NCBI GenBank assembly: GCA_902634075.1
Contig: CACPJA010000002.1
Coordinates: forward strand, 49,643-113,642
Length of the DNA: 64,000 nucleotides
Reading direction: 5' to 3'
Source: an uncultured Gammaproteobacteria bacterium
GTDB taxonomy: Bacteria > Pseudomonadota > Gammaproteobacteria > Steroidobacterales > UBA11654
Under the pieces are notes generated by a model. That model did no database searches. It saw nothing but the letters and a program-made list of their open reading frames with translations, and was not told where the DNA came from. How positions within the stretch are numbered: position 1 is the first letter of the stretch; every line of letters starts with the position of its first letter. Positions 5,660 through 39,721 of this stretch are shown here, one piece after another. A program made the position numbers and the translations under genes.

Positions 5660-6130
5660 CTATCCACCATCTTTTTCTATGTGATTGATAATTTTTTCTG
5701 TAGTTGCTTCTCCTATAACAGTCTCATTGATCATGACTGAGGGACCAATAGCACAATTACCTAGACAAAAAACTTCTTTGAGAGTGATACCTGAGTCATG
5801 GTTTGTTTCATCTAATGTTAGATTTAATTGTGAAGAAATATCTTTTAATAATTTTTTGCAATTTTGGCTTTGGCAAGCTTCAGCTAGGCAAATTCTTATA
5901 ATGTTTTTTCCAATAGGTTTGGTTCTAAAATCATCATAAAAGGTTATTACATCAATGATTTCCGCTTGAGAGTAATTAAAAGCAGTAGCTAACTGTGCAA
6001 TACACTCTTTAGAGATATACCCAAAATGCTCTTGTAGAGTGTGTAATGCAGGCATTAGACCTCCTTTCTTTTCAACAAAAGGTTCAATAAGAGTTATGGG
6101 TTCAAAAGTATTATTTTGGCCAGAGCTCAT
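5660..6130 (-). CDS. fdsG: NAD-linked formate dehydrogenase gamma subunit (NuoE-like 2Fe-2S)
   Basis: NuoE-type Cys motifs CLAEAC and CLGNCAIGP. The track start at 6136 is GTG. The ATG at 6130 has AGAGGGTGG immediately upstream, so I call 6130. Confidence 0.85.
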   Translation of the reverse strand: MSSGQNNTFEPITLIEPFVEKKGGLMPALHTLQEHFGYISKECIAQLATAFNYSQAEIIDVITFYDDFRTKPIGKNIIRICLAEACQSQNCKKLLKDISSQLNLTLDETNHDSGITLKEVFCLGNCAIGPSVMINETVIGEATTEKIINHIEKDGG

Positions 6131-6404
6131 AACCACCCTCTATACTGTAAACTTCAGTAAACCCCTCACTGATTAGGAACTCCGCTGCATTTTGACTTGA
6201 AATACCTTTGTAACAATAAATAATTGTTGGTATATCCTTGTCAGCTTTTTTGATAAATTCATGAATATCCAGATTCCCAATATTTAGAGCGCCATCAATA
6301 TGAGAAGACGAATAACTATCCTCGTCTCTTATATCAATAAGATAATTATCTTTTGTTAATAGATCCTTCGCCTCTTGAGTTGTAATGTTCTTAAACTTAT
6401 TCAT
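6111..6404 (-). CDS. single-domain rhodanese sulfurtransferase (GlpE-like)
   Basis: 97 aa. Active-site loop IIYCYKGISSQNAAEFL resembles GlpE CYHGNSS. The 3' end overlaps the fdsG start by 20 nt, which implies co-transcription and translational coupling. Confidence 0.8.
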   Translation of the reverse strand: MNKFKNITTQEAKDLLTKDNYLIDIRDEDSYSSSHIDGALNIGNLDIHEFIKKADKDIPTIIYCYKGISSQNAAEFLISEGFTEVYSIEGGYELWPK

Positions 6405-6447
6405 GTAAATTTATGAAAAATATAATATTAAGAGCATTATAATTACA

Positions 6448-7662
6448 ATGATCAATTATGACATCAGTTTATATCAAGATAAGTTTATGAATTACGACGT
6501 TTCTATAATAGGTTCTGGTCCCGTTGGTCTTTGTTTAGCTAAGGCATTGTCTTCTTTAGATCTAAGAATATGCATTATTGATCAACAAAATCAGTCATCG
6601 CTTGAGACTCCTATGGATGATGGTCGAGAAGTTGCGATAACTCATTTATCGAAGAAAATCTTAATTGAACTTGGAACTTGGGATTTAATAGATCAGGAAT
6701 CTGTTTCATTAATTAAAGAAGCGAAAGTAGTGAATGGATTATCACCCTATTCCCTTCATTTTAGCCACCAGGAAACAAAAGAAGAAACATTGGGCTACTT
6801 AGTCCCTAATCACCTTATTAAAGCTGCTGTCTATAGAGCTATCAGTAAACTAAATAATGTCGACTGTCTTACCGAAACAATAGCAAAGGAGTTTCTCATT
6901 ACAGAAGATGGAGTTACTCTCAATCTTAGTAACGGGGATACCATAACCTCGGATTTATTGGTAGCTGCTGATGGAAGATTATCTGGATCAAGAAGGCAAA
7001 TGGGTATTCCATCTGAGGTTAAAGATTTTGGTAAAACTGTTATTGTTTGCAAGATGGAACATGAAGAACCACATCATAATGTTGCTTTTGAGTGTTTTCA
7101 TTACGGGAGAACATTGGCTGTTTTGCCAATGACAGGTAATTTTTCATCAATTGTTATAACTATAGCTTCCGATAAAGCAAATGAGGTTCTAAATCTTTCT
7201 GATTCAGACTTTAATGCTGATATTGAGCAGCGATTTAACCACCGTCTTGGTAATATGAAAGTTTCAAGTGAGAAGTTTTCCTACCCTCTTTTCGCATCAC
7301 ATGCTGATTATTTTCATGCAGAACGCTTTGTGTTAGTTGGTGATGCTTCTGTAGGCATGCACCCCGTCACAGCGCATGGTTTTAACCTAGGTCTACGAGG
7401 AAGCTATAACCTGAAGAAAATAATTGAAAAAGCTATAAACAGAAATTCTGATCCATTTTTCTCTAAAGTTGTTTTAGAGGAATACAATAAACAACACCAA
7501 CTAGTCACAAGACCACTTTACTATGGAACTAATTTGATTGTTGATTTGTACAATAGCGATCGCTTGACAGCAAAATTACTAAGAAGAGCTGCCCTTCGTT
7601 TTGGTAATAATTTTTGGCCAGTTAAGAAATTAATAATGAATCAGTTAACAGAAACCAACTGA
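6448..7662 (+). CDS. FAD-dependent ubiquinone-biosynthesis hydroxylase (UbiH/UbiF/UbiM/COQ6 family)
   Basis: GxGxxG dinucleotide fold (DVSIIGSGPVGLCLAKAL), DGRLSGSRRQMGI, and the family motif LVGDASVGMHPVTAHGFNLGLRG. An alternative start at M14 (6487, MNYDVSIIGSG) would give the usual short N-terminus. Confidence 0.8.
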   Translation: MINYDISLYQDKFMNYDVSIIGSGPVGLCLAKALSSLDLRICIIDQQNQSSLETPMDDGREVAITHLSKKILIELGTWDLIDQESVSLIKEAKVVNGLSPYSLHFSHQETKEETLGYLVPNHLIKAAVYRAISKLNNVDCLTETIAKEFLITEDGVTLNLSNGDTITSDLLVAADGRLSGSRRQMGIPSEVKDFGKTVIVCKMEHEEPHHNVAFECFHYGRTLAVLPMTGNFSSIVITIASDKANEVLNLSDSDFNADIEQRFNHRLGNMKVSSEKFSYPLFASHADYFHAERFVLVGDASVGMHPVTAHGFNLGLRGSYNLKKIIEKAINRNSDPFFSKVVLEEYNKQHQLVTRPLYYGTNLIVDLYNSDRLTAKLLRRAALRFGNNFWPVKKLIMNQLTETN

Positions 7663-7671
7663 TTAACATCA

Positions 7672-8457
7672 ATGAACCCGGAACCAGCATCAACTCTATT
7701 GCTTCTCAAAGATATCAATTTTTCAATAGAAGTTTTTATGATTAAAAGAGCATCCAAAACAAACTTTGGAGGCGCATGGGTTTTTCCAGGTGGTAAAATA
7801 GATAAAGAAGATCTAAATTCAGAGATTCTAAACTTATGTCATGGTTTAGATGACAAAAAAGCCTCCTTAATTCTTAATATAAAATCTAATGGACTTTCCT
7901 ATTGGGTCGCGTGTTTGAGAGAGTGTTTTGAAGAATCTGGCATCCTTCTTGCCTACCGTGAAGATGGTTCTGGTTTCAATCCAAATGATGAAGAAAGTAA
8001 TTTACTGAATATCCTTAGAGACAGCTTAAATAATGGGAAGATAGGTTTTGCAAATGTTTTAAGAGAATTCAATTTAAAACTTGCTGTAGATAAGTTGATT
8101 TATTTATCTCATTGGATAACTCCTAAAATGGAAACCAGGCGTTACAGCACGAGATTTTTTATTGCCAGTATTGCAGATGACCAGAAGGCAATTCATGATG
8201 GCTATGAAGCTGTTGACAGTCTTTGGGTGAAAATAGAACATGGATTGGAAGAATATAATCAAGGTAAGTTTCCAATTATCATGCCGACAATAAAGAATTT
8301 GGAACTTGTCTCTGGTTACGAATCAACACTCTCATTGCTAAAAGATAAGAAAATGATAGAACCTAAAGACATACACCCAATTGAGCCTAAATTCTTTATC
8401 AAAGATGGTAAATTAGTGGGTCTCTTGCCTGGAGATATTGGATATGAAGATCACTAA
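7672..8457 (+). CDS. Nudix hydrolase, NUDT19-like (possible acyl-CoA diphosphatase)
   Basis: Nudix box region GGAWVFPGGKID...ACLRECFEESGILLA. RYSTRFFIA, HWITP and the C-terminal LVGLLPGDIGY resemble recalled human NUDT19 (RFDTAFFL, WLTP, MVHLLPGDELY). Confidence 0.7.
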   Translation: MNPEPASTLLLLKDINFSIEVFMIKRASKTNFGGAWVFPGGKIDKEDLNSEILNLCHGLDDKKASLILNIKSNGLSYWVACLRECFEESGILLAYREDGSGFNPNDEESNLLNILRDSLNNGKIGFANVLREFNLKLAVDKLIYLSHWITPKMETRRYSTRFFIASIADDQKAIHDGYEAVDSLWVKIEHGLEEYNQGKFPIIMPTIKNLELVSGYESTLSLLKDKKMIEPKDIHPIEPKFFIKDGKLVGLLPGDIGYEDH

Positions 8458-35077: not shown

Positions 35078-35686
35078 TTAATTAAGCATCGACTTAGGAA
35101 TTGAGCTTTCTTTATTTTGGTTGCTACTTTGATCATCTAATTCTAAATCTAGATTTTTAGGTTCTTTAATATCAGGTAGATCTGGAAGTTCATCTAGTCT
35201 TTCGAGTCCAAAATAGTTAAGAAATTCAGACGTAGTTGAAAACATTGCTGGTTTACCTGGTACATCTCTATATCCAATAATTTTAATCCAATTCCTATCT
35301 GAAAGCGTTCTCATAATACTAGAACTCACAGAAACTCCTCTAATGGCTTCGATATCACCTCGAGTTACAGGCTGTTTATAAGCAATAATTGATAAAGTTT
35401 CCATTAAGGCTCGAGAATATCTAGGTGTTTTTTCAGCAAATATTATATTTAGATAATCATTGATTGATTTTCTGGCCTGAATTCGATATCCACTAGCAAC
35501 TCTCGAAACTTCAATTTCTTTAGATTTATAATCATTCTCTAATCCCTTTATTGAATCTAAAATATCTGCTTTTGTAATGTTTTCTTTGTTGCTTATGATC
35601 TTATATAGCCTGTCTGCAGAGAGAGGCTCATCTGATGATAGTAAAAGAGCTTCTATAGTGTTTTTTAAATTGAAATCTTTCGTCAT
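35078..35686 (-). CDS. scpB: SMC-Scp complex subunit ScpB
   Basis: 202 aa. IEALLLSSDEPLS N-terminus and tandem winged-helix pattern (ETLSIIAYKQPVTRGDIEAIRGV). Overlaps the scpA stop by 1 nt. Confidence 0.85.
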   Translation of the reverse strand: MTKDFNLKNTIEALLLSSDEPLSADRLYKIISNKENITKADILDSIKGLENDYKSKEIEVSRVASGYRIQARKSINDYLNIIFAEKTPRYSRALMETLSIIAYKQPVTRGDIEAIRGVSVSSSIMRTLSDRNWIKIIGYRDVPGKPAMFSTTSEFLNYFGLERLDELPDLPDIKEPKNLDLELDDQSSNQNKESSIPKSMLN

Positions 35687-36498
35687 TATTTTTCTATCAA
35701 TGTTTTCACATGTATTGTACCAAATTCTTCTGCCTGGACGATTTCTATAAGTAGCTCTTTCATTAGTTCTAGAATGGCAAGAAAAGTTACCACTAAACCA
35801 ATTTTTTGTTCCTTTAAATCAAACAGGTCCTCAAATCTCACAAAATCCTCATTTTCTATTTTTTCTAGAATCTTTATCATTCGTTCTTTAACAGACAAAG
35901 GTTCTTTTGTGAAATGAAGTGTTGAGAACATTTCGGCTTTTTTAAGAACCTCTTGAAAAGAGATGACTAGTTCCTTCAATTGGATATCTGGCAGAACTAG
36001 CGGTTGTTCAAACTGCGCTGTTTCAACAGATGAAGGGTATATATCTCTTTCAACTCTATCTAATTCATTGATTTCCTCAGAGACTTTTCTGTATCTTTCA
36101 TATTCTAAAAGTCGCCTGACAAGTTCAGCTCTAGGATCTTCTTCATCTTCAATTTCCTCAAAGATCGGAAGCAACAATCTGGATTTTATTTCTGCAAGCA
36201 TTGCTGCCATTAACAAGTATTCACCAGCTAATTCGAGTTCTAGTTCTTTCATTAGATTAATGTAATCGACATATTGTTGTGTTATATCCGCAATAGGTAT
36301 ATCAAGTATGTCAAGATTTTGTTTTCTAATTAAATAAAGTAATAGATCTAGAGGACCTTCAAATGCATCTAGGAAGACTTGTAATGCAACAGGTGGAATA
36401 TATAAATCTTTAGGCAATTCAGTGATTTGTTCGCCGTCAACTATAGCAAAAGGCATTTCACTTTGTTGTGGCTTATTGCGATCTTTTATTGTTTTCAT
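35686..36498 (-). CDS. scpA: segregation and condensation protein A (kleisin)
   Basis: 270 aa. Kleisin N-terminal motif FEGPLDLLLYLIRKQNLDILDIPIADITQQY and a C-terminal winged helix. Confidence 0.85.
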   Translation of the reverse strand: MKTIKDRNKPQQSEMPFAIVDGEQITELPKDLYIPPVALQVFLDAFEGPLDLLLYLIRKQNLDILDIPIADITQQYVDYINLMKELELELAGEYLLMAAMLAEIKSRLLLPIFEEIEDEEDPRAELVRRLLEYERYRKVSEEINELDRVERDIYPSSVETAQFEQPLVLPDIQLKELVISFQEVLKKAEMFSTLHFTKEPLSVKERMIKILEKIENEDFVRFEDLFDLKEQKIGLVVTFLAILELMKELLIEIVQAEEFGTIHVKTLIEK

Positions 36499-36503
36499 TA
36501 AAG

Positions 36504-37001
36504 TTAAACAAACTCTTTATTGTGAGTTTCTTTGGTAAAGGAGCTGTCATCTATTATTTTTCCATTGATAATAGAGTTAATTTCATTAATATCTTTTTTC
36601 ATATTTTCATAATGTCGTTTATCATCGATTTCATAGCTAGATACAAAAAAGAAAGTAAACCCTAAAATACTTTGATCATCTTTGAAGTAACCAGGCTCTT
36701 TCAGATTAGCTACAAAGTAAGATAAGTCATCTGCTATTTTTTTTTCAAATATGCCTTTATTATTTAGTCTTATTCCCTTAGGTTGAAATAACTTAATAGC
36801 ATCCACTAAGGTTATAGTTTCGTCTTCAAGTGACAATCTCATGGTTATAACTTTATTTTTACCAACCTTATTTTCATTTATTACGAACTTTTCATTTATA
36901 TTTAATTGATTTTGATGATTAGTTCGTTTTCTTTTTTCGTAAATTAACAGGGAAATAAGAACTGTAAAAACCACAGTTAATAATATCCATGCATTTTCCA
37001 T
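36504..37001 (-). CDS. zipA: minimal ZipA-like cell-division protein (TM anchor + FtsZ-binding-like domain)
   Basis: 165 aa. N-terminal TM helix (AWILLTVVFTVLISLLIY). The C-terminal region aligns by eye with the recalled E. coli ZipA FtsZ-binding domain: YFVANLKEPGYF vs FSLANMVKPGTF, and GFTFFFVSSYEIDD...INGKIIDD vs GVTIFMQVPSYGDE...VGGVVLDD. It holds the position after smc that zipA has in Pseudomonas. Confidence 0.55.
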   Translation of the reverse strand: MENAWILLTVVFTVLISLLIYEKRKRTNHQNQLNINEKFVINENKVGKNKVITMRLSLEDETITLVDAIKLFQPKGIRLNNKGIFEKKIADDLSYFVANLKEPGYFKDDQSILGFTFFFVSSYEIDDKRHYENMKKDINEINSIINGKIIDDSSFTKETHNKEFV

Positions 37002-37003
37002 AA

Positions 37004-39721
37004 TTAAGTGATTTTTTCTTCTGACATTTCTACAGCTTCGTCTACATCAACTGAGACTAGTCTTGATACCCCAGGTTCGCTCATTGTTACTCCGATAAGT
37101 TGTTTAGTGAGTTCCATAGTTGTTTTATTATGAGTGATAACTACAAATTGAACATTGCTGCTCATTTCTTTAACAATATCGCAAAAGCGACCTACATTTG
37201 TATCATCTAAAGGAGCATCCACTTCATCTAATAAGCAAAAAGGTGCAGGATTCAGTTCAAAAATAGAGAAAAGCAATGCAACAGCAGTAAGAGCTTTTTC
37301 GCCACCTGATAGTAAATGAATGTTACTATTTCTTTTACCAGGCGGTCTGGCCATAACAAAAACACCACCTTCTAGGGCATCGTTGTTTTCCAACTCTAGA
37401 TAAGCTTTACCTCCGTCAAAAAGCCTTGGGAAATGCTTTTTAAGACCCTCGTTAACTTTTATAAAAGTTTCATTGAATCTTGTTTTTGACTCATCATCTA
37501 TTTGTTTAATTGCTCCGTTAAGTGTATCTAGGGCACGATTTAAATCTTCAAATTGCGATAAAAGTTTTTCCATTCGTTCATTTTCTTGGTCATATTCTTG
37601 GGCTGCAGCAAGATTAATTGGACCTAGTCTATCGATAGATTTTAGTATTTTTTCTAGTTCTTCTTCTAATGCATTATGATCAATGGAACTATCATTCAAC
37701 TTGTCACTTATAGATTCAAAGTTTTCTCCATGATTCTTTAGTTGGTCATTTAAAGATTCTTTCCTAACTTCATATTCTTTTTGATTTAACTTAAAGTGTT
37801 CTAAATCTTCTCTAGCTTGATTAACCTGGCTGTTAATATTAGTTCGATCAATTTCAGAATTTCGAAGTATTGTTTGACTATCTTCTAAAATCTTCCTTGA
37901 AGCATCTAGATCTTTTTCTTTTTTAAGACTGTTATTAAGCAAGCTTTCTAATTTTCTTTTAGAGTTATCCTCAGGAGTTTCATTGTTTTTAGTTTTTAAT
38001 GTAAGTTCTAAAGATCTACTTTTTAACTGAGTTCTTTGGGCTTCAAGTCTATTAATAGCCGTGTTCATTGCATCTTGAGAAGACTTTAGAGACTCAACTT
38101 TCAATTCTTGACTCTGGACTTTGAGCGTCAAGCTTTCAATTTTTTGCTTTAATGTGTTTTTCTGGTTAGCCAGATTATTTTTAGCATTATCTGATTCATG
38201 CTTATCAAGATTTAACTGACCTACAAGTTCAGTGTTTTGATCAAGTAAATTTATTGATCTTTTTAGTTCTCTTTCGTTTTCATTAATTTTTTTCTCTGTA
38301 TCTTCTAGTTCGCTTGAAATTGAGACTAATTGGCTTTCAAAATTATTAATTTGTTGCGATATATTTTCCGAACTATTATCTCTTAGAGAGGATAAAAGAC
38401 TGTTTAAATTAGTTTTTAATGATTTGAAAGAACTTTCCAGCTGATGCAAGTTGTTGATAATAATTTTTTGTTGTTGCTGGTTAGAAAGTTGTTTTTCTAA
38501 TAAGTTAACCTTAACTGTTTCTTTTTCAACTATGGTATTTTTTTCATTGAGCTCTGATTTAATAGCTTCATTCTTAATCTCAGCTTTTACGAAAGATTGA
38601 TTTATTTCTTCCAACTTTGTCGATAATTTTCTCAGTTCTGATTTATCGTCATTGAAGCCAGCTAATATCTTTCCTAATTCTAACTCTATCGTTTCAAGTT
38701 CTTTTTTATCTTTATCAATCTCTTTGTTAATATTTCCTAGTTCTGATTTAATCTCCTCAGCGTTTATTGTTTTTTGTGAAGCCAGTTCTTTTTCATACTC
38801 AATCGATTGTTCAAGTCTGGCAATATCAGCTTGGATAGCAAAGTGCTCTTTTTGTTTCTGATTAAAGTCTTCATTTGCTTTGTTGTTTTTAATCCTTAAT
38901 TCTTCTATATCTGCTTCTATTTTCCTGAGTTTAGTTAGATGATCATCATAGGTTTCCTGATACTTTGTTGAATCAGCCTTGTTTGTTTCTATGAGTTTGT
39001 TTATTTCTAGGATTTTTGTATAGATTATTTCTGCGCCTATTTCTTTTTCTCGAGACTTTAGCTTTTTATATCGTTCAGCATCGTTTTTCTGCTTTTTGAG
39101 CCGTTTAAGTTGCTTTTCTATTTCATCTTTAAGATCATTTAAGCGATTTAAGTTCTCCCGTGTGTTCCTTATTCTGGATTCAGTTTCTTTTCTTTTTTGC
39201 TTGTATTTAGAAATTCCAGAAGCCTCTTCTATGAAGACTCTCATTTCGTCAGGTTTTGCTTCTATTAGGTCAGCAATCATAGCCTGTTGTACTATTGCAT
39301 AACTTCTAGGTCCTAACCCTGTTCCAAGGAATAAATTAGTAATATCTTTTCTTCTACACTTTGTTCCGTTGAGGAAGTATTCCGATTGACCGTCTCTGGA
39401 AAGTATTCGTCTTGTAGATATTTCATTGTATTGAGCAAATTCTCCACCAATTTTCTTTTCAGTATTATCAAAAAATAATTCTATGGAGGCATTACTTACG
39501 GGTTTTCGAGTTGAGGATCCATTAAATATGACATCTGACATCGACTCTCCTCTTAAGTATTTAGCTGAAGATTCACCTAACACCCATCTAACAGCATCGA
39601 TAACATTTGATTTACCGCAGCCATTGGGTCCGACGATTCCTACAAGATTTGACGGTAGAGTTAGCGTTGTTGGTTCAACAAATGTTTTAAAGCCTGAGAG
39701 TTTAATTTTACTTAGTCGCAT
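37004..39721 (-). CDS. smc: chromosome segregation ATPase SMC (short, no recognisable hinge)
   Basis: 905 aa. N-terminal head LSGFKTF...GPNGCGKSNVIDAVRWVLGE. C-terminal head LSGGEKALTAVALLFSIF, CLLDEVDAPLDD, ITHNK. Residues ~170-715 are uninterrupted coiled-coil-type sequence. Confidence 0.85.
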   Translation of the reverse strand: MRLSKIKLSGFKTFVEPTTLTLPSNLVGIVGPNGCGKSNVIDAVRWVLGESSAKYLRGESMSDVIFNGSSTRKPVSNASIELFFDNTEKKIGGEFAQYNEISTRRILSRDGQSEYFLNGTKCRRKDITNLFLGTGLGPRSYAIVQQAMIADLIEAKPDEMRVFIEEASGISKYKQKRKETESRIRNTRENLNRLNDLKDEIEKQLKRLKKQKNDAERYKKLKSREKEIGAEIIYTKILEINKLIETNKADSTKYQETYDDHLTKLRKIEADIEELRIKNNKANEDFNQKQKEHFAIQADIARLEQSIEYEKELASQKTINAEEIKSELGNINKEIDKDKKELETIELELGKILAGFNDDKSELRKLSTKLEEINQSFVKAEIKNEAIKSELNEKNTIVEKETVKVNLLEKQLSNQQQQKIIINNLHQLESSFKSLKTNLNSLLSSLRDNSSENISQQINNFESQLVSISSELEDTEKKINENERELKRSINLLDQNTELVGQLNLDKHESDNAKNNLANQKNTLKQKIESLTLKVQSQELKVESLKSSQDAMNTAINRLEAQRTQLKSRSLELTLKTKNNETPEDNSKRKLESLLNNSLKKEKDLDASRKILEDSQTILRNSEIDRTNINSQVNQAREDLEHFKLNQKEYEVRKESLNDQLKNHGENFESISDKLNDSSIDHNALEEELEKILKSIDRLGPINLAAAQEYDQENERMEKLLSQFEDLNRALDTLNGAIKQIDDESKTRFNETFIKVNEGLKKHFPRLFDGGKAYLELENNDALEGGVFVMARPPGKRNSNIHLLSGGEKALTAVALLFSIFELNPAPFCLLDEVDAPLDDTNVGRFCDIVKEMSSNVQFVVITHNKTTMELTKQLIGVTMSEPGVSRLVSVDVDEAVEMSEEKIT

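Follow-up and report, generated by a model that had tools for sequence, protein, structure and literature searches.

The ATPases of the SMC superfamily differ in how their coiled-coil arms end. In SMC, MukB and MksB the apex is a hinge, and in RecN, an ATPase of the same superfamily, dimerisation is mediated by a coiled-coil tip without a globular hinge. The apex of Rad50/SbcC and of the archaeal ASRP/ClsN proteins is a zinc hook with a CxxC motif (PMC9389158). All the other long-armed members of the superfamily compared here have a dedicated apex module. Hinge-less oceanic SMC proteins have already been noted once, which tempers the novelty of the case described below: Sussfeld et al. 2025 (PMC12153180) report an abundant cluster of such proteins, without a CxxC motif, among Tara Oceans/OM-RGC genes; the cluster is assigned to Actinomycetes, branches in a basal position relative to the actinobacterial seed sequences and is described there as highly divergent from the sequences in nr. 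The subject of the present analysis is the smc gene (37004..39721, minus strand) in a 64-kb stretch of contig CACPJA010000002.1 from an uncultured gammaproteobacterium, hereafter the window. This gene encodes a protein of 905 amino acids (aa) that is an Smc orthologue by descent and lacks one of the architectural features by which the family is defined, the hinge. It belongs to a clade that is a low-GC, genome-reduced, open-water lineage of Woeseiaceae (Gammaproteobacteria) carrying the orthologous Smc of Smc-ScpAB.

The open reading frame (ORF) starts with ATG and comprises 905 codons plus the stop. The Pfam profile SMC_N matches residues 3-886 with an E-value of 4e-57, and the NCBIfam equivalog model TIGR02168 (SMC_prok_B) scores 856.7 bits, above its cutoff of 567.35. 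The TIGR02168 match falls into two stretches and leaves out the middle of the profile; the first stretch aligns residues 2-447 with positions 1-445 of 1181. The N-terminal half of the ATPase head (residues 1-170; 39212..39721, minus strand) contains the Walker A motif GPNGCGKS (G31-S38), the arginine finger R57 and the Q-loop (Q145/Q146); the C-terminal half (residues 716-905; 37007..37576, minus strand) contains the signature motif LSGGEK (S805), the Walker B motif and D-loop within LLDEVDAPLD (D832/E833) and the H-loop histidine H864. All these motifs are invariant in 29 members of the clade, and SMC heads from the PDB match the C-terminal half at up to 2e-109. The head motifs quoted in the first-pass annotation of this DNA (GPNGCGKSN, RWVLGE, LSGGEKALTAVALLF and CLLDEVDAPLDD) are all found in the ORF, as is the K/E/Q/N/L-rich, coiled-coil-type composition described there for residues ~170-715, a region with no Trp, no Cys, seven Gly and two Pro.

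Searches with three kinds of profiles agree with the same annotation that no hinge is recognisable in this protein. The SMC_hinge profile (PF06470) has no Pfam match in the 905 aa, even at E<=1. A family-specific, hinge-only hidden Markov model (HMM) of 175 positions, run with all filters off, has no match in any frame of the window or of four related loci (L001-L004). As a positive control, this HMM scores 235 bits with the canonical SMC of a Woeseia metagenome-assembled genome (MAG; locus L044); the score of 202 bits with the locus of TMED78 (L027) is to be read with the fact that L027 belonged to the training alignment of the HMM. An HMM for the entire canonical SMC (1167 positions, built from 25 canonical relatives) aligns with the short protein in two collinear pieces, positions 1 to ~430 with residues 1 to ~430 and positions ~717-1166 with residues ~450-901. 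By this comparison, ~285 ancestral positions are missing, and the ~25 residues at the deletion junction (residues 426-450 by the HMM domain boundaries; 38372..38446, minus strand) have no detectable counterpart in canonical SMC. A hinge that diverged beyond recognition by AT-rich drift was considered and rejected, given that only these ~25 residues are unassigned between the two arm homologies. Likewise, there is no globular fold at residues 380-520 in either of two AlphaFold2 models, one for the window protein and one for P0105, which is 65% identical to it.

The two models agree with each other. In that of the window protein, helices span residues 158-314, 322-414 and 416-443, followed by a turn at residues 444-448 (446-447 in P0105) and by helices at 449-572 and 586-663; overall, the chain is helical at 158-443 and 449-763, with a predicted local distance difference test score of 86-93 in the arm and no globular fold anywhere in residues 170-715. 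The helix breaks are mirror-symmetric about the turn, such that 315-321 pairs with 573-585. The predicted fold is a long intramolecular antiparallel coiled-coil hairpin, in which the N-terminal arm helix (residues 171-443; 38393..39211, minus strand) leads into the predicted turn at the position of the hinge (residues 444-448, SSLRD; 38378..38392, minus strand), from which the C-terminal arm helix (residues 449-715, corresponding to canonical positions ~717-980; 37577..38377, minus strand) returns, with further breaks at 573-585 and 664-681. The turn bears out the earlier choice of nt ~38314-38449 as the candidate apex. Alignment of the N-terminal arm with canonical proteins is free of indels to residue ~430 by the HMM, and the first 419 residues align without any indel. 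Compared with the PDB by Foldseek, the model retrieves only SMC-family chains with low TM-scores, and these add nothing on the tip. The arm also contains a segment, EIARLEQSIE(H/Y) (residues 298-313, nt ~38783-38830), that lies just before the coiled-coil break at 315-321, is near-invariant in the hinge-less proteins and their canonical relatives, and is much better conserved than the flanking arm; it may be a functional arm site, e.g., an elbow or a partner contact.

The geometry of the hairpin bears on the way in which the hinge was lost. With the turn at ~446, the positions of paired residues sum to ~893; addition of the 262-residue length difference from canonical SMC gives ~1155, a sum that also fits the canonical hinge boundaries (~497 and ~659). 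Because of this fit, a single symmetric in-frame deletion of ~262 codons can be proposed, which would have removed the hinge together with ~50 residues of each hinge-proximal arm helix and fused the two helices where their residues had already been partnered in the ancestral coiled coil. The product would be a head with an arm of ~275 residues closed by a plain helical turn of 2-5 residues. Comparison by homology with the canonical relatives gives an arm that is shorter by ~50 residues; its absolute length, ~275-285 residues, is a rough estimate that varies with the point chosen as the end of the head.

The short form is widespread and homogeneous. Among the 120 best clusters from a collection of 5.8 billion proteins, 116 consist of proteins of 905/906 aa that are 65-92% identical to the window protein, and none of these short-form clusters carries PF06470. 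The sequences come from ENA, JGI, NCBI, Logan and Tara assemblies, on contigs of up to 1.57 Mb, and nr contains members of the clade at 68-70% identity. Among the GTDB species genomes, the 905-aa form is encoded in three "Woeseia sp." MAGs, and a 60%-identical form cut off by the contig end is found in a fourth MAG of the Woeseiaceae. The concern, raised in the first-pass annotation, that the short gene reflects a deletion in this particular assembly is thus removed by its clade-wide presence on many independent contigs and by the same 905-aa gene in sister genomes. In the L003 locus (positions 6001-8385; Woeseia MAG, CAZLQT010000016), the open frame of smc comprises only 795 aa (protein P0020); tblastn aligns all 905 residues there at 90% identity, and the short frame is probably due to a frameshift or sequencing error in that assembly.

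When the proteins are clustered at 50%, the hinge-less group is reduced to one representative (P0085), and the next 149 matches are all 990-1220 aa long. The closest other relatives are SMC proteins of 1162-1172 aa from Woeseiaceae and Steroidobacteraceae, in which SMC_hinge is detected at residues ~524-619 with E-values from 1e-10 to 1e-11. The GC content of the hinge-less loci is 33-36%, compared with 56-67% in the genomes of the canonical relatives, and the genomes of water-column Woeseiaceae are 1.7 +/- 0.7 Mb in size vs 3.1 Mb in sediment (PMC12175321). The gene order truB-rpsO-pnp-dksA-queF-smc is common to the hinge-less, TMED78 and canonical Woeseiaceae loci, which indicates that the 905-aa gene is an orthologue of canonical smc rather than a paralogue. 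A neighbour-joining tree of the head regions groups the hinge-less proteins in a single clade with 100% bootstrap support, nested among the 1165-aa proteins; the sister group of this clade is poorly supported (52%). Taken together, the synteny, the TIGR02168 score above the cutoff and the presence of scpA and scpB in the same gene cluster identify the protein as the orthologous SMC of the cell and uphold the original view of it as the condensin ATPase.

The pattern of substitution shows strong purifying selection on the hinge-less smc. Between the window gene and its homologue in L001, with an unsaturated synonymous divergence (dS) of 0.45, the ratio of nonsynonymous to synonymous divergence (dN/dS) is 0.074 for the whole gene, 0 for the N-terminal head (dN = 0), 0.02-0.05 for the C-terminal head, 0.09 for each arm and 0.14 for the apex (residues 420-460). 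The alignment of 120 sequences contains a single indel column. The signature motif of an ABC-type ATPase reaches across to the ATP on the opposite head, and its strict conservation in the clade therefore implies that two heads still engage. From these comparisons of sequences, the 905-aa protein is very probably a functional hinge-less orthologue of Smc.

No recognisable substitute for the hinge is present at the tip. The block of residues 441-460 is the least conserved in the protein, with a mean pairwise identity of 0.29 vs ~1.0 in the heads. Near the tip, hydrophobic residues are conserved only with the 3-4 spacing of the a/d core, at positions 421/422, 425, 428, 432, 435, 439, 443 and 446 and, past the turn, at 454, 458, 461, 465, 468 and 472. 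The clade alignment shows neither a second hydrophobic stripe nor a conserved polar patch at the tip, and conserved Gly or Pro residues are likewise absent there; the arms of 26 non-redundant members are free of CxxC motifs, and Cys is missing from residues 170-715 of the window protein. This pattern appears to be that of a simple two-stranded helical hairpin and gives no support for a RecN-like tip interface or a zinc hook, while a weak self-association of the tips or arms would be compatible with it. The RecN-like tip contact that the first-pass annotation had offered as an example of another dimerisation mode is accordingly neither shown nor favoured, the tip being the least conserved part of the protein, with only the core heptad positions kept.

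Because the tip has no conserved interface, the arms are most likely joined only at the head/kleisin end. The best overall explanation, namely a hinge-less Smc-ScpAB that arose by a single deletion and has its arms joined at that end, has in our judgement about an even chance of being correct. Mechanistically, an ATP-engaged head dimer would be bridged by one ScpA and two ScpB subunits, the two arms would be held only at the head/kleisin end, perhaps aided by weak lateral alignment of the arms, and DNA would be clamped and held in the head-kleisin compartment instead of a ring closed by the hinge. A mechanism of this kind, without dimerisation at the tip, is put forward tentatively. The most far-reaching form of the proposal, that the only Smc-ScpAB of a free-living lineage works without any arm-tip dimerisation, with the heads and the ScpA/ScpB bridge alone joining the hairpins, seems rather unlikely. 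Several considerations weigh against the overall explanation. In B. subtilis, loss of hinge dimerisation yields a non-functional Smc, and the only functional substitute for the hinge is another dimerisation module, the zinc hook of Rad50 (PMC5344682); since the zinc hook can replace the hinge, it is dimerisation that matters and not the hinge fold (PMC5344682). A complete lack of tip dimerisation is without precedent. The heads are poorly modelled by AlphaFold2, with low confidence and from a shallow alignment. Furthermore, the heptads are at their most regular within 25 residues of the turn on either side, and the arm length is strictly conserved over 65-92% identity; both features would also suit a role of the arm in the geometry of a dimer.

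Some of these observations also form the case for the strongest alternative, which is possible if somewhat doubtful, namely that the hinge has been replaced by self-association of the coiled-coil tips, either in a RecN-like manner or through two hairpins that pack into a four-helix bundle. This would give a closed Smc2-ScpA ring that works in the canonical way. The requirement for arm-tip dimerisation of any fold in B. subtilis (PMC5344682), the regular heptads near the tip and the invariant arm length all fit this scheme, and dN/dS at the apex is still below 0.15 in the unsaturated comparison of the window with L001. The low conservation of residues 441-460 argues in the opposite direction, as does the restriction of conserved tip residues to the a/d core, with no extra hydrophobic stripe, polar patch, Cys or CxxC; in addition, no RecN model is found among the 25 best of 30 NCBIfam matches.

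It is improbable that the 905-aa protein is an accessory copy, or that its hinge is supplied in trans, with a canonical smc, MukBEF, MksBEF or a hinge protein encoded elsewhere in the genome. The DNA inspected amounts to the 64-kb window and ~15 kb around each of four relatives, which leaves room for such a gene and counts against the hinge-less Smc as the sole condensin. Nevertheless, the short gene occupies the ancestral smc locus and is followed by scpAB, the window and L001-L004 contain no hinge-like sequence in any frame, water-column Woeseiaceae have the small genomes mentioned above (PMC12175321), and, for the published oceanic hinge-less SMCs, single-cell genomes yielded no regular smc alongside the hinge-less one (PMC12153180).

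Still less credible is a domain-swapped rod, in which the helices of two chains would pair with each other in a single long antiparallel coiled coil, and each end would carry a composite head. The register of helix pairing is identical for intramolecular and intermolecular pairing, and some members of the clade, e.g., P0105, lack a classical helix breaker at the tip. In the AlphaFold2 models, the window protein (turn at 444-448) and P0105 both fold back on themselves, although a single-chain prediction cannot reveal a swap. In the rod, moreover, the heads would be ~80 nm apart and could neither engage nor share one ScpA, which fits poorly with the strict conservation of the signature motif and of scpA. 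Finally, there is a negligible probability that the short gene is a pseudogene in decay or a product of faulty assembly or binning: the 795-aa copy in L003, itself an apparent local assembly error, is all that speaks for this, against the 116 clusters of 905/906 aa from many projects among the 120 best, the four GTDB species with the hinge-less form (one cut off by the contig end), and an intact frame with essentially no indels and a dN/dS of 0.07 at a dS of 0.45.

Compared with the B. subtilis-type Smc-ScpAB (TIGR02168), the clade protein has the same head motifs, collinear arms with the same breaks, the scpA and scpB partners and the canonical Woeseiaceae locus; it differs in the loss of the hinge and of ~50 residues of each distal arm, in its length (905 vs ~1167 aa) and in the turn of 2-5 residues at the tip. 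It resembles the engineered B. subtilis Mini-Smc and Smc(Zh) (Burmann et al. 2017, PMC5344682) in the shortened arms and the lack of a canonical hinge; unlike the clade protein, in which no such module is recognisable, these constructs keep a dedicated module for tip dimerisation. Truncated B. subtilis Smc regained function at arm lengths of 253-267 aa, and natural arm lengths have a mode at 238 aa (PMC5344682); the arm of the hinge-less proteins, by the rough estimate of ~275-285 aa, may fall outside this functional regime.

Other gammaproteobacterial SMCs of the same set are also reduced and retain the hinge. TMED78 (L027 6001-9027; 1008 aa, 33% GC), P0130 (1003 aa) and P0134 (990 aa) all match the hinge positions of the canonical HMM (in L027, SMC_hinge is detected at 2.7e-6) and have lost ~63-83 positions inside each arm in a roughly symmetric manner. 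Their arms, roughly estimated at ~255-262 residues, are near the functional regime of 253-267 residues in B. subtilis and not far from the natural mode at 238. P0178 is another of the hinge-keeping short SMCs of marine gammaproteobacteria, which range from 990 to 1071 aa. TMED78 additionally shares the low GC content and the locus with the hinge-less clade; in contrast to that clade, all three proteins have arms that are shortened internally, and they are placed apart from it in the head tree. Stepwise descent of the hinge-less form from a short-armed form similar to that of TMED78 was considered and is not supported: the deletions are located elsewhere, and the head tree, the backbone of which is weakly supported, keeps the two forms apart. 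The reduction of SMC has taken at least two different routes among these gammaproteobacterial proteins.

The closest parallel is the oceanic cluster of PMC12153180, which likewise consists of proteins with SMC heads and arms, without a hinge and without CxxC, that are abundant in marine metagenomes, and in neither case was a regular smc partner copy detected. That cluster is assigned to Actinomycetes, whereas the clade analysed here is nested in Woeseiaceae; the two are set apart by the published description, not by comparison of their sequences, and no genomic context or ScpAB linkage is reported for the actinobacterial cluster. By record titles, synteny and the tree, the gammaproteobacterial clade is most likely a second, independent hinge-less lineage. 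What the present case offers beyond the 2025 report is the orthology, the partner genes, the selection data, the deletion boundaries and the hinge-bearing sister forms.

The remaining relatives are more distant. Like the clade protein, Rad50/SbcC and the archaeal ASRP/ClsN combine a head with a long antiparallel coiled coil whose apex is not a hinge; they differ by their CxxC motif, which the clade protein lacks, and by profile scores, the best Rad50 model giving 74 bits vs a cutoff of 1000 and the ASRP/ClsN model NF045487 giving 100.7 bits vs a cutoff of 300. RecN is a much shorter protein of another family and is expected to have a conserved tip interface, which is not seen in the clade protein. 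Searches with the MukB and MksB (JetC) family HMMs yield only marginal JetC matches (E from 3e-6 to 7e-4). A role in a defence system was also considered and rejected: PADLOC reports only generic SMC-head matches (mad3 with 186 bits, and weak LmuB, AriA and JetC).

The smc gene is the first of a compact cluster on the minus strand. It is followed after 2 bp by a gene (36504..37001) for a ZipA-like protein of 165 aa with an N-terminal transmembrane segment and a ZipA_C domain (PF04354, 6.7e-7), after a further 5 bp by scpA (35686..36498), encoding a kleisin of 270 aa (PF02616, 3.6e-34), and then by scpB (35078..35686), encoding 202 aa (PF04079, 2.9e-47; TIGR00281, 122.9 bits vs a cutoff of 89.2), which overlaps scpA by 1 nt and itself abuts a convergent SDR gene without a spacer. 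Such tight packing is consistent with genome streamlining. The first-pass annotation placed scpA and scpB immediately downstream of smc; both genes do follow smc in the same cluster, with the zipA-like gene (36504-37001) intervening. The zipA-like gene is kept at the same position in L001, L002 and L004, and across the hinge-less loci, scpA is 76-95% identical, and scpA and scpB together are 73-95% identical. The ZipA-like protein has no match in NCBIfam; the zipA gene after smc encodes 219 aa in TMED78 (L027 9035-9694) and 227 aa in the canonical Woeseia MAG (L044 9528-10211), so that the 165-aa version looks like a second miniaturised protein of the same cluster. In these two relatives (L027 9035-14371, L044 9528-15386), smc-zipA is followed by an ORF of ~675-680 aa, which we take to be ligA from its position and N-terminal sequence, without a family search, by further ORFs, and by scpA-scpB. 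In the hinge-less loci (window positions 35078-39721), the order is smc-zipA-scpA-scpB, and the putative ligA ORF, which would encode the essential ligase, is gone from the locus; tblastn with its protein from L027 finds no match in the 64-kb window. A search of the window with the parS consensus also finds no match.

Current models of SMC function hold dimerisation at the tip, through a hinge or a zinc hook, to be indispensable, and a natural loss of the hinge in a protein whose heads, arms, ScpA and ScpB are under selection puts this view to the test. Close relatives keep a full-length SMC, and other marine gammaproteobacteria of the same SMC neighbourhood have shortened the arms only. Together with the actinobacterial cluster reported in 2025, the clade suggests that the hinge has been lost more than once in genome-reduced ocean bacteria. 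The clade protein amounts to a minimal construct made by nature, well defined because the ends of the deletion are known, on which the need for a closed Smc lumen in DNA loading and translocation can be tested. If dimerisation at the tip is indeed absent, the essential activity of a prokaryotic condensin would depend neither on closure of the lumen by the hinge nor on the roles of the hinge in DNA binding or as a gate.

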